From Escherichia coli (GTDB taxonomy: Bacteria > Pseudomonadota > Gammaproteobacteria > Enterobacterales > Enterobacteriaceae): a stretch of DNA of 64,000 nt. The notes beneath the pieces were generated by a model. It had not been told where the DNA came from. It made no database searches and saw nothing but the letters and a program-made list of their open reading frames with translations. The position numbers were made by a program, and so were the translations under genes. Position 1 is the stretch's first letter, and every line of letters begins with the position of its first letter. The DNA lies in assembly GCF_050920415.1 (NCBI RefSeq), contig NZ_CP169309.1; one strand, given 5' to 3'. Positions 9,131-49,279 of the stretch are shown piece by piece.

Positions 9131-9180
9131 TTGACACTGTTTATTCATACAGTAAAAAATAGTGCTGTATACAAATACAG
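9131..9180 (+). promoter_or_regulatory. SOS-regulated promoter with two tandem LexA boxes
   Basis: TTGACA at 9131-9136. CTGTttattcatACAG (9137-9152) fills the spacer, and CTGTatacaaatACAG (9165-9180) lies just downstream. Both fit CTG-N10-CAG. RBS agaggga at 9184-9190. Confidence 0.75.
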
Positions 9181-9195
9181 TATAGAGGGATTTTT

Positions 9196-9444
9196 ATGCG
9201 TATTGAGATCTGCATAGCCAAAGAGAAAATGACTAAAATGCCAAGCGGTGCTGTTGATGCGTTAAAGGAAGAATTAACTCGGCGCATCAGTAAGCGTTAT
9301 GACGATGTAGAAGTAATCGTAAAAGCCACCAGCAATGACGGGCTTTCTGTTACACGCACCGCAGATAAGGATTCTGCAAAAACATTTGTTCAGGAGACTC
9401 TGAAAGATACTTGGGAGTCTGCTGACGAGTGGTTTGTTCACTAA
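9196..9444 (+). CDS. DinI-family protein
   Basis: 82 aa: [31 protein letters not shown]...[16 protein letters not shown]. It aligns by eye with E. coli DinI (MRIEVTIAK...LQETWESADDWFVSE). Confidence 0.8.
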
Positions 9445-38379: not shown

Positions 38380-38460
38380 TGGACCGCCATCGAGGACTCG
38401 AACCCCGCACCAACAACCCTGTTATCGTGTCGTCTGCTCTTCCTGATGAGCTAATGGCGG
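38380..38460 (-). tRNA. tRNA-like gene with non-canonical anticodon arm (identity undetermined)
   Basis: 81 nt: CCGCCATTAGCTCATCAGGAAGAGCAGACGACACGATAACAGGGTTGTTGGTGCGGGGTTCGAGTCCTCGATGGCGGTCCA. The acceptor, D and T arms and the CCA end are good. The anticodon region is about 5 nt too long: stem ACGAC/GTTGT encloses an 11-nt loop. Confidence 0.55.
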
Positions 38461-38467
38461 TACGTTA

Positions 38468-38542
38468 TGGTGGCCCTGCTGGATTTGAACCAGCGACCTG
38501 GCGATTATGAGTCGCTCACTCTCACCACTGAGCTAAAGGGCC
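38468..38542 (-). tRNA. tRNA with CAU anticodon, ileX-like (tRNA-Ile2/Met)
   Basis: 75 nt: GGCCCTTTAGCTCAGTGGTGAGAGTGAGCGACTCATAATCGCCAGGTCGCTGGTTCAAATCCAGCAGGGCCACCA. By eye it is very close to E. coli ileX, and the acceptor stem is one base short. Confidence 0.8.
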
Positions 38543-38582
38543 GGGCGCAGGATAATAACGGTACGTAACTAATTCTGCAATA

Positions 38583-39641
38583 TCATCCGTTCTGACTGAC
38601 TAAATCCTGAACTTCCTTGACCGTCTGCTCAAAACGCTCAGTCTCCAGCTCAACGCCAATTGCACGACGTCCCAGCGCCATCGATGCTTTGACCGTCGAA
38701 CCCGACCCCATGAAAAAATCTGCAACCAGATCTCCCGGACGACTGCTTGCGCTGATTATCTGCTGCAACATTTCTGCCGGTTTTTCGCACGGATGTTTCC
38801 CGGGATAGTACTGCACCGGTTTATGCATCCACACATCGGTGTACGGCACCTGCACAGTCACACCGAAATACCGCCGCAAATTTTTATATTCTCTCAGCAG
38901 TTCCGTATACTGCCGGTTCAGTTCACTGTATGTGCTGACCAGCTGGTGGTGTGGCTGCTCCAGTTCACCGCGCTGATGTTTTTCTGCTGCAACACGCGCA
39001 AACAACGCCTGCAATTTGTTGTAATCAGCTTCGTTCGGTAACTGCCACTGACTGGTACCAAACCAGTGCGAAGCCATGTTTTTCTTTCCGGTGGCTTCCG
39101 CTATCTGTTTTGACGTTATTCCCAGTTCGGCACGAGCATCCCTGAAATACGATATCAGCGGTGCCATTATGTGCTGTTTGAGTTCCCTTTCTTTTGCCGC
39201 ATAGCCGTCACTTTTGCCGCGATATGGCCCCTGGTAATGTTCAGCAAACAGAACGCGCTCTGTGGCAGGAAAATATGCGCGCAGACTTTCTTTATTACAC
39301 CCATTCCAACGTCCGGACGGCTTCGCCCAGATGATATGGTTAAGCACGTTGAAACGTTCACGCATCATGATCTCAATATCAGATGCCAGGCGATGCCCAC
39401 AGAACAGGTAAAGGCTTCCGGCAGGTTTCAACACCCGCCAGAACTGGGCCAGACAGTGGTCCAGCCACTTAAGATAATCTTCGTCCCCTTTCCACTGATT
39501 GTCCCAACCGTTGGGTTTCACCTTGAAGTAAGGCGGATCGGTAACAATCAGGTCAATGGAATCATCAGGCAGGGACTGAATAAAATGCAGGCAATCAGCG
39601 TTGATTAAATCAACACTGTTTATTTTTACAGTATTTTTCAT
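38583..39641 (-). CDS. DNA methyltransferase (N6A/N4C, DPPY type), orphan
   Basis: 352 aa with IVTDPPYF (motif IV) near the N-terminus and FFMGSGST (motif I, SAM binding) near the C-terminus. No adjacent nuclease gene. Confidence 0.85.
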   Translation of the reverse strand: MKNTVKINSVDLINADCLHFIQSLPDDSIDLIVTDPPYFKVKPNGWDNQWKGDEDYLKWLDHCLAQFWRVLKPAGSLYLFCGHRLASDIEIMMRERFNVLNHIIWAKPSGRWNGCNKESLRAYFPATERVLFAEHYQGPYRGKSDGYAAKERELKQHIMAPLISYFRDARAELGITSKQIAEATGKKNMASHWFGTSQWQLPNEADYNKLQALFARVAAEKHQRGELEQPHHQLVSTYSELNRQYTELLREYKNLRRYFGVTVQVPYTDVWMHKPVQYYPGKHPCEKPAEMLQQIISASSRPGDLVADFFMGSGSTVKASMALGRRAIGVELETERFEQTVKEVQDLVSQNG

Positions 39642-39791
39642 GGATCAGTAAGCGTAACTCTGGTAGGCTCACTCTGCTTTTGCGCTAAAGCAGTGGGCCG
39701 TGGTTCGCTTGTGACCAGTAAGCATGAGCGAATGGCTGGCAGGTGCTACCAACACCCACCAGCCGCCCATTTTCACAGCAGGAAACCGCCA

Positions 39792-39995
39792 TTACTGGCA
39801 GCGTCTGAATTTATTCCCGTACCCGCCGTTATCCTTCGCCAGACCCGCCAGAACTAACTGAGTCAGTATTAACTGGCACCGGACTTCGCTTACTCCGGTA
39901 GTTCTCGTCATCATGCGTGGCGTTACCCACTTGTCAGCAGGTAAGAAATGAAGGACTGCGGCGGCGGTTTCTGTCATATCTTGCTGTTTTAGCAT
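39792..39995 (-). CDS. small hypothetical protein (possible winged-helix)
   Basis: 67 aa from ATG 39995 (RBS aaggga): MLKQQDMTETAAAVLHFLPADKWVTPRMMTRTTGVSEVRCQLILTQLVLAGLAKDNG... Confidence 0.45.
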   Translation of the reverse strand: MLKQQDMTETAAAVLHFLPADKWVTPRMMTRTTGVSEVRCQLILTQLVLAGLAKDNGGYGNKFRRCQ

Positions 39996-40171
39996 GTTTT
40001 TTCCCTTCTGGTTAACATGACATACCAATAACTCTTGTCTAAAAAGCCAGCAAGATAAAAAGTCAGTATTCACGACCACCAGCGTGTTTACTGTACTGCA
40101 CCAAGTTTACAGGTACAAAAAAACCGCTCAGCGGCGGGTTTAAGTTGTGTGGCGAAGTAACCACTCTTAAC

Positions 40172-40199
40172 AGCATATTTGATTTTTTACGATTGTAAA
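40172..40199 (-). promoter_or_regulatory. candidate late promoter PR'
   Basis: The minus strand has TTTACA (40199-40194), a 16-nt spacer, then TATGCT (40177-40172). A short hairpin with T7 (40117-40134) about 50 nt downstream could be the tR' analogue. Position-based inference only. Confidence 0.3.
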
Positions 40200-40264
40200 C
40201 GGTTGATTATTCATCTCCAATAAAAATAATTGTGTAGGTATGCCCTTAACAATGGATAAGAAAC

Positions 40265-40711
40265 ATGAATAAAATGACTGTATTATTACTTAGCGCAACT
40301 ATCATTTCAGGTTGTACTTCTTCCGTACCATTGATAAAGAAAACTCAATCAGGAAAACCTGAGGGGGTTTATCAAAATACGACAAAAGATAAAGTCAAAG
40401 ATGCCCTTGTGAATTACTGCAATAGTAGAGGGTTGATAATTTACAACGCGGATAACAGCAGTGTTATATGTGGTAAAGAACTGGAAGGCGGGTCTGCTGT
40501 TTTTGGACAAATGTTAATCGGCAATGCCTATTCAACAACCCCGGTATCAAAAGTCAGATTTACTATCGCTCAAGTTAATAACGATACAAAAGTGTGGGCC
40601 GATATGTGGATGGAAACTCAAATGGCAATGGGGCAAGTACAACAAATGGCTATAACAGACAACGCAAGCAAAAACACTATCCAACAACGTCTTGATGAAT
40701 TAAAACCTTAA
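40265..40711 (+). CDS. lipoprotein, opposite-strand moron between Q and the putative late promoter
   Basis: 148 aa. MNKMTVLLLSATIISGCTSS carries a lipobox (ISGC). The gene is AT-rich and antisense to the surrounding operon. Confidence 0.7.
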   Translation: MNKMTVLLLSATIISGCTSSVPLIKKTQSGKPEGVYQNTTKDKVKDALVNYCNSRGLIIYNADNSSVICGKELEGGSAVFGQMLIGNAYSTTPVSKVRFTIAQVNNDTKVWADMWMETQMAMGQVQQMAITDNASKNTIQQRLDELKP

Positions 40712-40721
40712 GTAAATTAAT

Positions 40722-40755
40722 TAAATAAAATGGGGAGAAATAAATCGACTCCCCA
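40722..40755 (-). terminator. hairpin with T-rich tail just downstream of Q
   Basis: tggggag/ctcccca stem. On the minus strand it is followed by ttttatttaatt. Confidence 0.4.
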
Positions 40756-40796
40756 CACATTAAACTGATTCAATTACCCCCTCAATAAGAGATCTT

Positions 40797-41162
40797 CTAA
40801 CGATCCATCTCTAGCTCAATTTCTAACATCATTAACATGCCATCAACTACACCTTCAGCCTTTTGCAATAAACGCCCAACCCAGCAATCAGAACGCCCAT
40901 GTTTACGGGCAAGCGCCATAAACGTCATACCACCTACATAATAATCCACTAATAAATCGTGCAAATCGCTGTTGTTCTTTTTCAGGCGAGCCATGCACCC
41001 ACAAATGATCATCGCGTCATCGTCACAACATTGCGGGCGGGATTTTACTTTTGAAGGGATTAGTCCTTTAAATCCTGCAGCAATAGACGACCAGGTGACA
41101 TCCTCGTGATTATTTGCCACCCATGCCCCCCAACGTTCAAGAACCATTTGAATATCACGCAT
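40797..41162 (-). CDS. Q: late-gene antiterminator Q
   Basis: 121 aa from ATG 41162 (RBS ggagaa): [64 protein letters not shown]... This is the typical phage antitermination Q (type 2) pattern. Confidence 0.85.
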
Positions 41163-41179
41163 CAACTTTCTCCACAAAA

Positions 41180-42709: not shown

Positions 42710-43525
42710 TCAGTGAACGGTATCGAGCAGCTTTAACAGCTCAGGGAATCGGGATTCGAAGAAATGCGGCTGCGTCTCGCGCGGATTTGCAGGACTGGTG
42801 ATGTTCTTGCCGAACATGCAGCCTTTCGCCGTCAGCGACCAGAATTTTTTGATGTTGTTAATCGCGGTACGGCTGTATCGTTCGCGTTGTTCAACGATCC
42901 CCAGCTTCGCCATCTGGTGATATGCCTGATTAGCCGTCAGGCGGATACCATACTGCTTCAGCAGTGCACTCAGCGACAGCGTAGGGCGGCTTGAACCATC
43001 TGGCGCATCAGCAGGTGCATCAATGGCATAGATCGGCATAAGTTCAGGAAGACCTGCTACCTTTGATAATTTCTGGTATGCACCAAGTTTCGAGGAGTTT
43101 GACAGATTTAGAGTCTTTGCTGCTGATTCAAGCAGAATGACCCCGGATTTAATTTTGTCGGATGTGGTTTCTTCTGGTGATGAATTATGAAGCGCATCAA
43201 AAGTACGTATCACTTTTAAGCTGAATGCCGGGCTGATCCACATTGCATATGCATAGACCAGCTCTTTACAGACATACGTCCCACCATTGCGCCCCTGAAT
43301 GGTGATGACAGGAATACTACGGGAATCTCCCGTAGTTTCTTCTTCCAGTAATTCCACAAGAGCCTTCGTTTCAGGACGACGCATAAACTCGTGAACTTCC
43401 AGCGAACGGGAGGAGCGATTCTCACCAGCGGCAAGAAGAGCAGCTTTCTGAAGGTCGTTAAGACAGTAGTTAGATTCAAAGTACTGGCGCACAGAAACGC
43501 CATCAATTACAAGCAACTGATTCAT
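42710..43525 (-). CDS. KilA-N domain / antirepressor-type protein
   Basis: 271 aa from ATG 43525 (RBS ggagaa): MNQLLVIDGVSVRQYFESNYCLNDLQKAA...GGTYVCKELVYAYAMWISPAFSLKVIRTFD (KilA-N), with an ANT-like C-terminal half. Confidence 0.7.
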   Translation of the reverse strand: MNQLLVIDGVSVRQYFESNYCLNDLQKAALLAAGENRSSRSLEVHEFMRRPETKALVELLEEETTGDSRSIPVITIQGRNGGTYVCKELVYAYAMWISPAFSLKVIRTFDALHNSSPEETTSDKIKSGVILLESAAKTLNLSNSSKLGAYQKLSKVAGLPELMPIYAIDAPADAPDGSSRPTLSLSALLKQYGIRLTANQAYHQMAKLGIVEQRERYSRTAINNIKKFWSLTAKGCMFGKNITSPANPRETQPHFFESRFPELLKLLDTVH

Positions 43526-43613
43526 TGGTTTCTCCACAAATTTCGGGACTGCACTCCCTTTTCGTTGATGCAAGATGAACTTACTGCGATTTTTAATAGT
43601 TATCAAGGATACA

Positions 43614-43629
43614 CTGTTCATAAATACAG
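43614..43629. promoter_or_regulatory. LexA (SOS) box in the rusA / KilA-N spacer
   Basis: aCTGTtcataaatACAGta fits the CTG-N10-CAG consensus with TA-rich centre. It lies 89 nt upstream of the antirepressor ATG, in the only large gap of the early-right operon. Confidence 0.6.
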
Positions 43630-43676
43630 TACCTTTAACGAGGTAATACCCAAATTTAGGGTGTTGCTCAATTCCG

Positions 43677-44072
43677 TTACCGAGTTGCTAATTTGCAACT
43701 CGCTTTTTCGTACTTACTGATAGTGATCTCGACCTTACCTTCCGGGATAACCGGTCCCCACTCCACCAGCATTCTTTTCACCTGACTGTCGTCTTCCCAC
43801 ACCCCCGCGTGGGTCAGGGCGTCAAACAGCGCCTTGTTATAGTTGTCCAGATCGCGGATCCGGTTATCCGGAGGAAACAACACGATCTCCACTGAAGCAG
43901 GTGCCGACGTTGGTTTCGGCAGACGACGTAACTGCTCAACTATTGCTGCGCACGCCGCGCTCTGGAATTTTCGCCCCGCCGCGCTTATCAGGCTCTTACC
44001 AGCAAACGCCCCTTTGTTGGGGTGTCGCCAGTACGTGTTCACGCTGGGCGGGAAAGGCAGTATTAGCTTCAT
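43677..44072 (-). CDS. rusA: Holliday junction resolvase RusA
   Basis: 131 aa: LPFPPSVNTYWRH...RIRDLDNYNKALFDALTHAGVWEDDSQV (RusA catalytic Asp motifs). Confidence 0.85.
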   Translation of the reverse strand: MKLILPFPPSVNTYWRHPNKGAFAGKSLISAAGRKFQSAACAAIVEQLRRLPKPTSAPASVEIVLFPPDNRIRDLDNYNKALFDALTHAGVWEDDSQVKRMLVEWGPVIPEGKVEITISKYEKASCKLATR

Positions 44073-44395
44073 ACTTTCAGGCCCCTCTCATGTAACCAGT
44101 GGGTTGCACGCAGCCTGGCGTTTTCCTCACCGGCAAGCAGTGAGCGGATAATCCCGACCGCCTCGCTGTCGTCGTCCTTCATCGCAGTATGAAGCGTTAT
44201 CCCCCGGGCCACGCCACGCTTTATCGTGATGACGCCTTTTTTCTCCAGTGCGCGAAGATGCTCCACCGCTGCATTCACTGAACGGTATCCCAGCATGGTT
44301 GCCACCTCCTGATTGGTTGGCGGGAAGCCACGTTCTTTCTGATAAGAAATCAGCATATCCAGCACCTGCTGCTGGCATTGAGTTAACGTCGTCAT
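44069..44395 (-). CDS. LexA N-terminal DNA-binding-domain paralogue lacking the S24 peptidase domain
   Basis: 108 aa. Residues 1-66 align with E. coli LexA 1-66 at 35 identical positions by my hand alignment, including the recognition helix (SVNAAVEHLRAL vs SPNAAEEHLKAL). There is no Ala-Gly site and no Ser/Lys dyad. Confidence 0.75.
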   Translation of the reverse strand: MTTLTQCQQQVLDMLISYQKERGFPPTNQEVATMLGYRSVNAAVEHLRALEKKGVITIKRGVARGITLHTAMKDDDSEAVGIIRSLLAGEENARLRATHWLHERGLKV

Positions 44396-45044
44396 GCCGC
44401 CATCTCCCTGACCAGTTTTTCCGCCTGCTGGCGAACCTGCGCCAGAAACGCCTCACCACATGCCTCAAGTTCATCGCGCCCGATGTAGCTGATTGCCGGT
44501 CCCTTCCAGGTCTGTCGAAAACAGCAATAGCACCAGCGAAGAAAGCGCCTGTCGGCACCTGCTTCTCATCTTTCGGGATAAACCAGGCAGGCAGTTCAAA
44601 ACCAATACGCCCGCGAATAAAAGCAATATGATCTGCATCTTCCGGCCACCACACTTCGCTGGTGGCAGCTTTGATCAGGAAAACATAGCGCCCGCCTTTA
44701 TCACGCATGGCACTGGCATGTTTCATGATGTAACGCATGCCGGTGATGTATTGCCCCTCATGCTGACTGGCGCGGCTGTATGGGGGATTACCAAAGGCAG
44801 CACCTTTAAGCTCCGCAAGACGTTCTGACCAGTCATGCGCCAGCGCGTTGTCTTCCGCCGTGTAATACGCGGTACATTTGGCGTTATCACCGTCAGTAAA
44901 CAGATCCAGGACAAACGGGCCAAACAGGGTGTTAATTCCCCAGAAAATGTTACCCGGCGTGCGCCACTGATCGCCCACTTCCTTCAGTTCATGGGCTGGT
45001 TTGTTCCGCAGTTCCACCAGCGCCCGGCAATATTTATTACTCAT
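44392..45044 (-). pseudogene. phage Dam-type N6-adenine methyltransferase (YfdM-like), apparent 1-nt frameshift near 44513
   Basis: From ATG 45044: MSNKYCRALVELRNKPAHELKEVGDQWRTPGNIFWG...FGNPPYS...GAIAVFD. The sensible continuation QTWKGPAISYIGRDELEACGEAFLAQVRQQAEKLVREMAA* is in another frame and ends in an ATGA overlap with the next gene. The in-frame read-through to 44127 is junk that overlaps two genes. Confidence 0.65.
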
Positions 45045-46353: not shown

Positions 46354-46574
46354 GCTGCACCTCCGAGATGCTTCATGTTTTTTCCGGAGCGAAAGGCTAT
46401 AAGCGGCATACTGACGCGGTAATTACGGCCCAGCGGTTCACAAATCACCTTCTGACATTCACGGTCAACCAGGCTAACACGTAGAACATGCCCTGCAGGC
46501 GTGGTGTACCACTGACCCGGTCGAGGACAACGGAAAGTCTGATTGGTAAACCGTTTGAAAATATTCCGGATCAT
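46350..46574 (-). CDS. hypothetical protein
   Basis: 74 aa, with start and stop overlapping the neighbouring genes. No family recognised. Confidence 0.5.
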   Translation of the reverse strand: MIRNIFKRFTNQTFRCPRPGQWYTTPAGHVLRVSLVDRECQKVICEPLGRNYRVSMPLIAFRSGKNMKHLGGAA

Positions 46575-47722
46575 TTGCGCCCCCTTACCTCGGAAGAGTT
46601 CAGCGACGAATGAATAAGACGGGCAAGAAATGCCGCATCGTTAATTCGGTCATACAGACTTACAGCCAGCGGTGATTCAGCTTTTTCCAGCATGGGATAA
46701 AGCTGCTGCAACCAGACCTGATGAATTGATGAAATGTAGGAATAGAGTACGCTGGCGTTATGTGCAACGTCGCTCGGTACAGCGGGCTTTGAAAGCTGTT
46801 TCTCCATCTGGTTAAAGGCATTGATGTATGCCTCTTTGAACTGGGCAGCACGTTTACCCGTGAAACCCATAGCAAGAAACGCAAAACCGTCGCGGGTTAT
46901 TTGATAGCAAGGTAGTTTGCGGCCTGTGCAATCGGTGTAATCACTCACCGAAAAATTGCGGGCAGTGAATGATGCGGAGCATTCAAGCGTGCGGATCTTT
47001 TTCAGTACATCGTCATGACGTTTGGAGAAGAAGTTGGCAACAGCCAGGGATGAAGTAACAGCCTGACCATCAACGATGGCAATTTCAGGTTGAGTGAGGG
47101 TTGGGATCGTAGCCATGATGGCAGCCTCTTTGGTGATTTTTAATAACTCACCACCAAGGCTTTCCACGACCTTATTGGTGGTGAGACGTACAGGGGTGGA
47201 AATACCGGTCACCAAAGAACCCGGCCCAACCGAAGTTGGCCCTGCACGCCCCACCATAATTTGGGCGTAATGCTGCTCATGACACAAAAAAACCGCAAGA
47301 GCGCGGTTGTGCGCTTTGGTGAATTCCGGGTTTCCACGCCCGGCACCCGCTTTATAAGGTGCCTGAACAGTGTAACGTCCCGGAATGGCAGAATCAATGT
47401 GCTGGTGGTCCTTCACACTCAACAAAATCACGCCTGAATTTCCACAAAGGGCTAAAGCACTCATGCGGGTAGTCTTTGCGAAGATAGATAACGCGCTGTG
47501 TTTCTGGCTCCCAACGAATAACATGAACATAAAGTCCTCTTCCGTCACGAAACCAGCGGTTAAGTTCCTGCACAACTCGCCCCCCACAGTCAGGTAAAGT
47601 TCTCTGTGGTTACTTACAGCCAGGAGATTTGGTAATCTGCATTCATGCCGTAACAACAGGTGTTCAGCGACGCTGACCACCAGCTGTTGCGACAAATGGT
47701 TATTTGCCGTTAAACTGTTCAT
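46571..47722 (-). CDS. Rha-family phage regulatory protein with an unrecognised 193-aa N-terminal extension
   Basis: The C-terminal half from MATIPTLTQPEIAIVDGQAVTSSLAVANFFSKRHDDVLKKIRTLE... (internal ATG 47143, RBS agagg) is a typical Rha N-terminus. The same frame is open upstream to ATG 47722, which overlaps the previous stop. Confidence 0.6.
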   Translation of the reverse strand: MNSLTANNHLSQQLVVSVAEHLLLRHECRLPNLLAVSNHRELYLTVGGELCRNLTAGFVTEEDFMFMLFVGSQKHSALSIFAKTTRMSALALCGNSGVILLSVKDHQHIDSAIPGRYTVQAPYKAGAGRGNPEFTKAHNRALAVFLCHEQHYAQIMVGRAGPTSVGPGSLVTGISTPVRLTTNKVVESLGGELLKITKEAAIMATIPTLTQPEIAIVDGQAVTSSLAVANFFSKRHDDVLKKIRTLECSASFTARNFSVSDYTDCTGRKLPCYQITRDGFAFLAMGFTGKRAAQFKEAYINAFNQMEKQLSKPAVPSDVAHNASVLYSYISSIHQVWLQQLYPMLEKAESPLAVSLYDRINDAAFLARLIHSSLNSSEVRGRK

Positions 47723-48604: not shown

Positions 48605-49279
48605 ATGAAAACAGTCCATGACATCCGGCGGTCTAACGCCAGAAAACTGAGAGATGGTGTTGGCGGGAATTCTTCCTTTGCCACCATGATTGATCGCGAA
48701 CCAACCCAGACCAGCAGGTTTATGGGAGATGGTGCTACTAAAAATATCGGTGACAGCATGGCACGGCACATCGAAAAATGTTTCGACCTGCCTGTCGGAT
48801 GGCTTGATCAAGAACACCAGACAACGAACATCACAAAAAAACCTGATGTTTCAATCACTAATAAACAAATAACGTTAGTCCCTGTCATATCATGGGTACA
48901 GGCCGGAGCATGGAAAGAAGTTGGCTATTCTGAGGTTGATTTGAGCACAACAGAAACATATCCCTGCCCTGTACCCTGTGGCGAAATGACTTATATATTG
49001 AGGGTGATTGGTGATTCAATGATTGATGAGTACCGTCCGGGGGACATGATTTTTGTCGATCCAGAAGTACCAGCCTGCCACGGCGATGACGTTATTGCAT
49101 TGATGCACGATACAGGTGAAACCACCTTCAAAAGGTTGATAGAAGACGGGACACAGCGTTATCTCAAAGCATTAAACCCCAACTGGCCTGAGCCTTACAT
49201 TAAGATAAACGGTAATTGCTCTATCATTGGTACAGTTATTTTCTCAGGAAAACCAAGAAGATACAAAATTAAAGCCTGA
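48605..49279 (+). CDS. cI: CI-type repressor (HTH + S24 LexA-like autopeptidase)
   Basis: 224 aa with an N-terminal HTH. The C-terminal S24 domain has an AG site (WVQAGAW), a GDSM Ser and TFKRL Lys. Confidence 0.85.
   Translation: MKTVHDIRRSNARKLRDGVGGNSSFATMIDREPTQTSRFMGDGATKNIGDSMARHIEKCFDLPVGWLDQEHQTTNITKKPDVSITNKQITLVPVISWVQAGAWKEVGYSEVDLSTTETYPCPVPCGEMTYILRVIGDSMIDEYRPGDMIFVDPEVPACHGDDVIALMHDTGETTFKRLIEDGTQRYLKALNPNWPEPYIKINGNCSIIGTVIFSGKPRRYKIKA

Follow-up and report, generated by a model that had tools for sequence, protein, structure and literature searches.

The 151-nt gap between the genes rusA and kilA-N of an Escherichia coli prophage appears to form a self-contained promoter-operator-leader unit for kilA-N, that is an SOS-controlled internal promoter within the early-right operon, a reading to which we assign a probability of roughly 55%. 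The prophage lies in a window of 64,000 nt (the whole stretch of DNA analysed, taken from contig NZ_CP169309.1 of assembly GCF_050920415.1), rusA encodes a Holliday-junction resolvase, and kilA-N encodes a protein with a KilA-N/APSES-like DNA-binding domain. The proposed unit combines (i) a predicted operator of the LexA repressor (an SOS box), (ii) a putative sigma-70 promoter, named here P(kilA-N), and (iii) a hairpin in the leader RNA that is conserved far beyond the box (Table 1).

The early-right operon occupies the minus strand and contains cro, a cII-like gene, a Rha/Ash gene, replication genes, a Dam-like methylase gene, a truncated lexA-like gene, rusA, the gap, kilA-N, an open reading frame (ORF) of 171 aa, a DUF968 gene and Q. 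The start codon of kilA-N is the ATG at 43525-43523 and rusA ends at 43677, the gap being exactly 43526-43676. The RefSeq annotation of an identical prophage, located between yjjG and prfC of E. coli MFDS1022581, was used to compare the gene junctions. From the cII-like gene to rusA these are all overlaps of 1-4 nt, after kilA-N they measure 9-17 nt, and the longest apart from the rusA/kilA-N gap is the 43-nt junction of cro and the cII-like gene. An earlier reading of this DNA (the original prediction) had singled out the spacer as the one large gap on the way from cro to Q, and these lengths bear this out.

The LexA box

The core of the box, CTGTTCATAAATACAG (43614-43629), has the form CTGT-N8-ACAG, and the complete 20-mer, TACTGTATTTATGAACAGTG, agrees with the consensus TACTGTATATATATACAGTA at 16 of 20 positions, with both half-sites perfect. 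A scoring matrix for SOS boxes, derived from 26 E. coli sites, gave the 20-mer a score of 21.4, the 26 sites themselves ranging from 12.8 to 26.7. The core had originally been called a close fit to the LexA box, and this description holds. Scores above 20 are reached by just four sites of the 64 kb: the gap box, a pair preceding a dinI-like gene, and one where a methylase gene begins. The motif CTGT-N8-ACAG itself occurs 8 times in the window versus 0.77 expected, a count reached in none of 100 shuffles. A heterology index calculated from the same 26 sites was left unused, as published values were not reproduced (e.g. recN1, 1.7 vs 5.2).

Six E. coli/Shigella variants share an identical 16-nt core while differing from each other in the spacer 5' of the box, in one base of the -35, in the leader and by an 11-nt indel. 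Variation within E. coli (94-100% identity) is too low for footprinting by itself. The distance from the box to the ATG is 86 nt, which lies inside the range of 8-236 bp reported for box-to-start distances of Salmonella SOS genes (PMC8072944). Judged by its letters, the gap box is a high-quality candidate LexA operator.

A putative internal promoter

A weight-matrix scan, together with conservation, identified the hexamers TTGATA and TAAGTT as the -35 and -10 of P(kilA-N). The combination TTGATA-17-TAAGTT scores 11.6, which is the best value in the spacer and within the top 2% of 221-nt phage windows; as controls, the dinI promoter and the PR-like site scored 11.7 and 9.8, respectively, in the same scan. 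Transcription is predicted to start at about 43569-43572 (near 43571), giving a leader of 46 nt.

An alignment of the promoter region covered eight lineages and drew on loci of Raoultella, two Kluyvera species, Leclercia, Kosakonia and two metagenome contigs, which encode homologues sharing 63-88% protein identity. Its invariant positions are the TG in the -35 and T1, A2 and T6 in the -10 (the -10 variants being TAAGTT, TAATCT, TAATGT, TAGTGT and TAAGGT), and the spacing is always 17 nt while the spacer sequence varies. Invariant hexamer positions around a freely changing spacer are the pattern that a genuine sigma-70 promoter should leave in such an alignment. In Raoultella the layout is identical (box, 5 nt, -35), with a weaker box, CGCTGGATGTTTGTTCAGTG, scoring 13.5. 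Two other candidates, TTGAGC-17-TATTAC (5.4) and TTGGGT-16-TACTGT (4.1), with which the box would come to lie at +5 or on a -10, were not adopted, their scores being no higher than the median of random windows.

A conserved hairpin in the leader RNA

Between the predicted start site and the ribosome-binding site, the leader contains GGGA-GUGCAG-UCCC (43558-43545), the upper part of a putative hairpin. A corresponding hairpin is found 23-45 nt 5' of the ATG in nearly all full-length homologues, in which the loop is (G/U)UGCAG and the stem sequences are wholly different; the loops of Proteus, Morganella and Providencia read UGUACGG, UAUACGG and AUGCGG. Covariation was tested on a seed alignment of nine sequences with 6-nt loops: 93% of cells were paired vs 55% in shuffles, 5/5 pairs were changed on both sides, and none of 500 shuffles reached the observed score. 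With a covariance model, exactly one copy was found per locus, always before kilA-N; further copies elsewhere in the window, sought as a possible regulon, were absent (next best match, E = 3.9). When G·U pairs were allowed, the total stem length rose from 98 to 131 bp (17 wobbles), whereas allowing A·C, the antisense equivalent, added only 3 bp. Since the wobbles fit only the sense strand of kilA-N, the hairpin can be regarded as an RNA element of the sense transcript.

The fold of the window sequence alone is unexceptional (z = +0.36), such 4-bp stems being common by chance. RNAalifold, applied to the first hairpin alignment, reported no structure, because the mixture of 6-nt and 7-nt loops had thrown the stems out of register, and a search of Rfam over 43300-43900 (E<=10) gave no relevant match. 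The hairpin is also present in a kilA-N allele that lacks the spacer (see below), where it overlaps the rusA stop codon; it is thus independent of the SOS box and, judged by this distribution, older and more widespread than it. Its position and conservation suggest a translational operator, or else an element of mRNA stability or processing.

Most E. coli/Shigella copies (SfIV among those compared) carry 11 nt, CTCGTGGATAA, just 3' of the hairpin (about 43541-43544), which the window allele lacks. Their absence deprives the ancestral lower stem (ACGA/TCGT) of its 3' half and puts an upstream ATG at 43621 in frame with kilA-N. This ATG (303-aa ORF) was rejected as the start of kilA-N, given that the 11-nt insertion of the common SfIV-type allele breaks the frame; the similarity of the N-terminal peptide "extensions" among homologues is a mere translation of the conserved hairpin.

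Proposed mode of action

From the observed elements, their conservation and the strand specificity of the hairpin, we infer the following course of events. In the lysogen, CI would shut PR, and host LexA, bound to the box abutting the -35, would hold P(kilA-N) down from its position near -50, where it would probably obstruct sigma region 4 or the alpha C-terminal domain. Upon DNA damage, RecA would be activated, LexA cleaved and kilA-N transcribed from its own promoter, independently of CI cleavage and probably earlier than it. After induction, kilA-N would also be read through from PR. The leader hairpin would act on the mRNA, via translation or stability, and the product would be a DNA-binding protein of the KilA-N/APSES type, an antirepressor being one possibility.

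Distribution and alleles of the module

The spacer and the kilA-N allele of the window are found in phages SfIV and PhiR49_1 and in 187/5426 complete E. coli genomes (94-100% identity). A second kilA-N allele, sharing about 67% protein identity and present in SfV, SfII, Stx2a_1447 and Stx2c phages, begins 19 nt after rusA, with no box and no promoter. As the joint between the alleles lies inside the last codons of rusA, the spacer and kilA-N constitute one exchangeable module. In E. coli 09-00049, IS421 is inserted in rusA while the SOS-box spacer and kilA-N are intact; here kilA-N is severed from direct operon read-through and would depend on its own promoter.

The block rusA - kilA-N - DUF968 - Q is syntenic in many Enterobacterales, mostly without an SOS box. 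A survey of 80 loci, obtained by scanning one genome per species, yielded 38 full-length homologues. Five of the 38 have a LexA-like site scoring >=12.8 within 200 nt 5' of kilA-N, as compared with 0.28 expected (P about 1e-5): Edwardsiella (19.0), Erwinia sp. (16.6), Serratia (14.4), Raoultella (13.5) and Pantoea (13.3). The Erwinia sp. box overlaps the -10 of a strong promoter, TTGCCA-17-TATATT. As far as can be judged from these comparisons, SOS boxes are gained and lost around a stable predicted promoter, and the E. coli/Shigella allele has the best box.

The KilA-N protein and a truncated LexA encoded nearby

The kilA-N product was originally described as a KilA-N/ANT antirepressor-type protein, of which the KilA-N domain was recovered and the ANT domain was not. 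Residues 115-271 match no Pfam family at E<=10 (and hence no ANT/KilA-C, PF03374) and gave no NCBIfam hit, and no similarity of the protein to solved antirepressors was found. The protein family (PHROG 129) is labelled 'transcriptional regulator'; literature searches revealed no experimental function for its members, and nothing specific on this KilA-N family, on SfIV or on truncated LexA proteins in lambdoid phages. Another gene of the operon, located right after the cII-like gene, encodes a 383-aa Ash + Rha fusion (46571-47722, minus strand) with several matches to PHROG 'anti-repressor' families, and it is annotated as an antirepressor in Stx2a_1447. By annotation alone, this protein is a better antirepressor candidate than KilA-N.

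Two genes 5' of kilA-N, next to rusA, the prophage encodes a homologue of LexA that is cut to the DNA-binding domain and linker. It aligns with residues 2-86 of E. coli LexA (E 1e-15), and its recognition helix reads S-V-N-A-A-V-E-H-L, compared with S-P-N-A-A-E-E-H-L in the host protein, S39, N41, A42, A43, E45 and H46 being kept. A LexA_DNA_bind gene is present in 7/7 related loci for which the upstream region was recovered, with no clean correlation between the variants of its recognition helix and those of the box. The sole studied analogue found is gp6 of the Bacillus phage GIL01, a truncated LexA that binds a site overlapping the -35 of the late promoter P3 and activates it (PMC6182141).

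Other SOS boxes and the antisense strand

A dinI homologue (9196-9444, plus strand) is located at the prophage end next to prfC, 34 kb from the gap box, and no antirepressor-like ORF was seen after it. Its SOS promoter (9135-9182) carries two boxes, with TTGACA overlapping box 1, followed by TAAAAT and box 2. This textbook arrangement demonstrates that the prophage uses LexA boxes.

The remaining high-scoring site, TACTGTAAAAATAAACAGTG (score 23.0, 39614-39633), covers codons 4-9 of an N6/N4 DNA methylase gene (38583-39641, minus strand) 3' of Q. It is the same in position and sequence in Kluyvera and Rosenbergiella loci, whereas the Providencia variant has changed amino acids with CTGT and ACAG kept, which hints at selection on the methylase box itself.

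The 3' end of rusA contains a palindrome that resembles a terminator of antisense transcription, its T-run being on the plus strand; it occurs in both the spacer-bearing and the spacer-less alleles. As minus-strand RNA it has a folding energy of -13.5 kcal/mol (z = -2.96) and is not followed by a U-tract. Similar plus-strand sites lie nearby at 43316-43336 and 43815-43836, making 3 found vs 0.5 expected.

Arguments against SOS control and alternative explanations

Several observations weigh against an SOS-controlled P(kilA-N). The box is clear of the -35, the -10 and the start site, its 3' edge being 5 nt 5' of the -35 and its centre near -50, whereas E. coli SOS boxes that give tight repression usually overlap one of these elements. 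The boxes of tightly LexA-dependent Salmonella genes extend over the start site (PMC8072944). A box at -50 may allow weak repression only, and this is the weakest link of the proposed scheme. The promoter is also imperfect, TAAGTT agreeing with the -10 consensus at only 3/6 positions, and a strict consensus scan of 43300-43900 (both strands, threshold 9/12 matches) returned no promoter. The original prediction had likewise seen no convincing sigma-70 promoter near the box, a statement that holds under the strict scan and gives way under the weight-matrix scan and the comparative data. Moreover, the five nearest relatives from other genera (73-80% protein identity), i.e. those of Citrobacter farmeri, Kluyvera georgiana, Leclercia, Kosakonia and a metagenome contig (protein named for Cedecea davisae), keep the promoter and the hairpin but have no usable box at the homologous position. 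The degenerate sites of Kluyvera georgiana, Leclercia and Kosakonia score 7-11 (left halves GTGT, GTGA and GTGG) and those of the other two lower; some of these sites fall within the coding region of rusA. Consequently, as read from these loci, SOS control is neither ancestral nor universal for kilA-N, and the KilA-N protein has no known function that would make such control an obvious need.

Some of these points would suit a box that LexA binds with little effect on kilA-N, control resting instead with the leader hairpin or with weak constitutive expression, and the box being lineage-specific fine-tuning or a near-neutral derivative of a pre-existing near-palindrome. This is considered unlikely: it would account for a box outside the core promoter, for a promoter and hairpin conserved without it and for the degenerate palindromes at homologous positions (7-13.5 when Raoultella is included with the three genera above), but not readily for a perfect core that shows no change in any of the E. 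coli/Shigella copies examined while neighbouring bases vary, nor for the moderate-to-good boxes that arose independently 5' of homologues in Edwardsiella, Erwinia and Serratia. A chance palindrome to which LexA does not bind is scarcely credible. Short AT-rich intergenic DNA can indeed yield palindromes, and two other matches in the window (19862 and 33038) are GC-rich-centred and chance-like; however, only about 0.002 cores are expected in 151 nt, and the full 20-mer scores like genuine operators, is invariant across copies and has equals at the dinI promoter of the same prophage. It is also very improbable that the box controls a short plus-strand antisense RNA running from the spacer to the terminator-like hairpin in the rusA 3' end (43681-43712), in the manner of lambda OOP, a short antisense RNA of the early-right operon with a LexA-responsive promoter. 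The hairpin with a T-run on the plus strand only and a plus-strand candidate promoter, TTGATG-17-GATTTT (score 9.0), relative to which the box would span about +12 to +31, are in line with this idea, yet the -10 GATTTT is poor, the candidate is not conserved (its -10 falls inside the variable spacer of P(kilA-N)), plus-strand terminator-like hairpins also occur in boxless alleles, and the conserved leader hairpin is specific to the sense strand of kilA-N.

Two further alternatives concern the proteins involved. As a special case of an SOS-controlled P(kilA-N), the KilA-N protein could be a LexA-repressed antirepressor, serving as a second SOS input or as an inducer of other resident prophages, as in Gifsy, 186 and N15. 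The box and promoter permit SOS-dependent, CI-independent expression, the C-terminal part resembles proteins of other phages that bear the annotation Rha-like, Bro-N or antirepressor, and LexA-controlled antirepressors acting in trans are well documented (PMC3121763). Of the two parallel SOS inputs suggested in the original prediction, the CI-independent route is supported by the box and the adjacent putative promoter, whereas an antirepressor as its output is not supported; nor is an induction switch of the Gifsy/186 type, which consists of a small antirepressor and a non-cleavable repressor (PMC3121763), present in this phage, in which kilA-N encodes 271 aa and CI carries, as had been predicted, a Peptidase_S24 domain. 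In addition to the missing ANT/KilA-C domain, the lack of similarity to solved antirepressors and the family label, it must be considered that kilA-N is a core syntenic gene of the nin region, usually without an SOS box, that a cleavable CI of the S24 type needs no antirepressor, and that close relatives have the promoter without the box; the last point argues against the role, because an unregulated antirepressor of the phage's own repressor is incompatible with lysogeny. No evidence favours an antirepressor role for KilA-N, and we regard it as doubtful. Alternatively, the box may mainly or also be a target of the truncated LexA, made from PR after induction, which would re-repress P(kilA-N) or activate it as GIL01 gp6 activates P3. 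This idea draws on the retained recognition-helix residues, the location of the gene and its presence in all recovered loci, the GIL01 precedent (PMC6182141) and the four strong SOS boxes of the prophage. It is nevertheless quite improbable, as the spacer and box are often missing from phages that encode a truncated LexA (SfV, Stx2a_1447), many loci with box-like sites have no truncated LexA (Serratia, Erwinia, Rahnella), and the protein has no evident dimerisation domain. A broader and similarly speculative scheme, to which we give little more credence, would make the box a switch shared by two LexA proteins: host LexA would silence kilA-N in the lysogen, and after induction the RecA-resistant phage fragment would take over this box and other SOS boxes of the prophage (possibly also of the host), either re-silencing or activating them, with the GUGCAG hairpin as the operator of control at the RNA level.

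Comparison with known systems

The closest system to the proposed SOS-controlled unit is formed by the dinI-antirepressor units of the Salmonella prophages Gifsy-1, -2 and -3 (gfoA, gftA, gfhA; PMC3121763). Both have a LexA box with its own promoter in the nin region, 3' of the genes for replication and away from the immunity region, which allows (here, would allow) SOS expression from a repressed prophage, and terminator-like palindromes precede the LexA boxes of Gifsy as the palindrome in the rusA 3' end does here (PMC3121763). In Gifsy, however, the box overlaps the core promoter and drives dinI and a small antirepressor, and the repressors are non-cleavable (PMC3121763), whereas here the box is 5' of the -35, the 271-aa KilA-N protein is unrelated to GfoA/GftA, CI is of the S24 type, and dinI is elsewhere with two boxes of its own. 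A host LexA operator over a phage gene ties the prophage to the SOS response in 186 (Tum) and N15 (AntC) as well (PMC3121763); unlike these phages, which depend on the antirepressor for induction, the phage studied here has a cleavable CI, and KilA-N showed no relationship to Tum or AntC in sequence or domains, though no comparison aimed at them was made. With GIL01 it shares a LexA homologue cut to its DNA-binding domain and a LexA-type site at or next to a phage -35 (PMC6182141), but GIL01 is a tectivirus of Gram-positive hosts without a dedicated repressor and its gp6 recognises its own site, while the recognition helix in the present case is host-like and binding to the box hypothetical.

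Like P1 KilA, P1/P22 Ant and HK022 Roi, the KilA-N protein joins an N-terminal DNA-binding module to a swappable C-terminal module, the latter recurring behind Bro-N and Rha N-termini, and roi of HK022 lies, as does kilA-N, in the nin region. Unlike the P1 Ant/KilA class, the product has no ANT/KilA-C domain. In P22 and P1, antirepressor genes are controlled by antisense RNAs (sar and c4, respectively). Common to these phages and to kilA-N is a phage regulator gene whose ribosome-binding site is directly preceded by a structured leader; unlike sar and c4, the element described here consists of one hairpin on the sense strand, has GUGCAG as its conserved loop and matches no Rfam family.

Genomic context

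The coordinates of the features are given in Table 1. The Dam-like N6-adenine methylase gene 5' of the truncated lexA (about 44392-45044, minus strand) is frameshifted, and it is listed as a pseudogene by RefSeq in the identical prophage. The region 38400-40800 of the window corresponds to a Shiga-toxin phage backbone, with Q, the methylase gene and tRNA-Ile and tRNA-Arg directly before the lysis genes; stx genes are absent at their usual position in the prophage. The immunity region is e14-like, containing homologues of ymfK, ymfT and ymfL.

Table 1. Coordinates of the kilA-N promoter-operator-leader region and associated prophage genes (window positions).
Feature	Position	Strand	Description and basis
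cI	48605-49279	+	Peptidase_S24 domain, E 1.3e-26 (Pfam)
Truncated LexA homologue, 108 aa	44069-44395	-	DNA-binding domain and linker, no S24 protease domain; Pfam LexA_DNA_bind, E 2.9e-19
rusA (Holliday-junction resolvase), 5' neighbour of the gap	43677-44072	-	Pfam RusA, E 6.4e-15; RefSeq annotation of identical prophage
rusA 3'-end palindrome	43681-43702		CGAGTTGC-AAATTA-GCAACTCG (operon strand); T-run on + (antisense) strand only
Intergenic spacer, putative promoter-operator-leader unit of kilA-N	43526-43676	-	151 nt
LexA operator (predicted)	43631-43612		20-mer TACTGTATTTATGAACAGTG on operon strand; core CTGT-N8-ACAG at 43614-43629
-35 hexamer (predicted)	43601-43606	-	TTGATA; weight-matrix scan and conservation
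-10 hexamer (predicted)	43578-43583	-	TAAGTT; weight-matrix scan and conservation
Leader hairpin (predicted)	43536-43565	-	upper stem GGGA/UCCC (43558-43555 with 43548-43545), loop GUGCAG (43554-43549), weak lower stem
Shine-Dalgarno GGAG, 6 nt 5' of ATG	43532-43535	-	read from sequence; GTGGAG conserved in homologues
kilA-N, 271 aa	42710-43525	-	N-terminal KilA-N/APSES-like DNA-binding domain, helical linker, uncharacterised C-terminal domain
Q	40797-41177	-

Significance

An SOS box before a regulator gene of a prophage is of a kind already known; it is the leader hairpin and the truncated LexA that could prove to be new parts. If the box does serve two LexA proteins, the arrangement would be a lambdoid, Gram-negative counterpart of the LexA/gp6 circuit of GIL01, extended by a new leader RNA element. 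LexA-controlled genes in repressed prophages decide how lysogens behave at sub-inducing DNA damage and can couple the induction of several prophages. Carriers of the module described here include Shiga-toxin-related phages and serotype-converting phages of Shigella, and its share among complete E. coli genomes is about 3%, with O104:H4 and O111:H8 strains among them. Should P(kilA-N) indeed be under SOS control, a widespread DNA-binding protein would join the SOS regulon of the strains that carry it.

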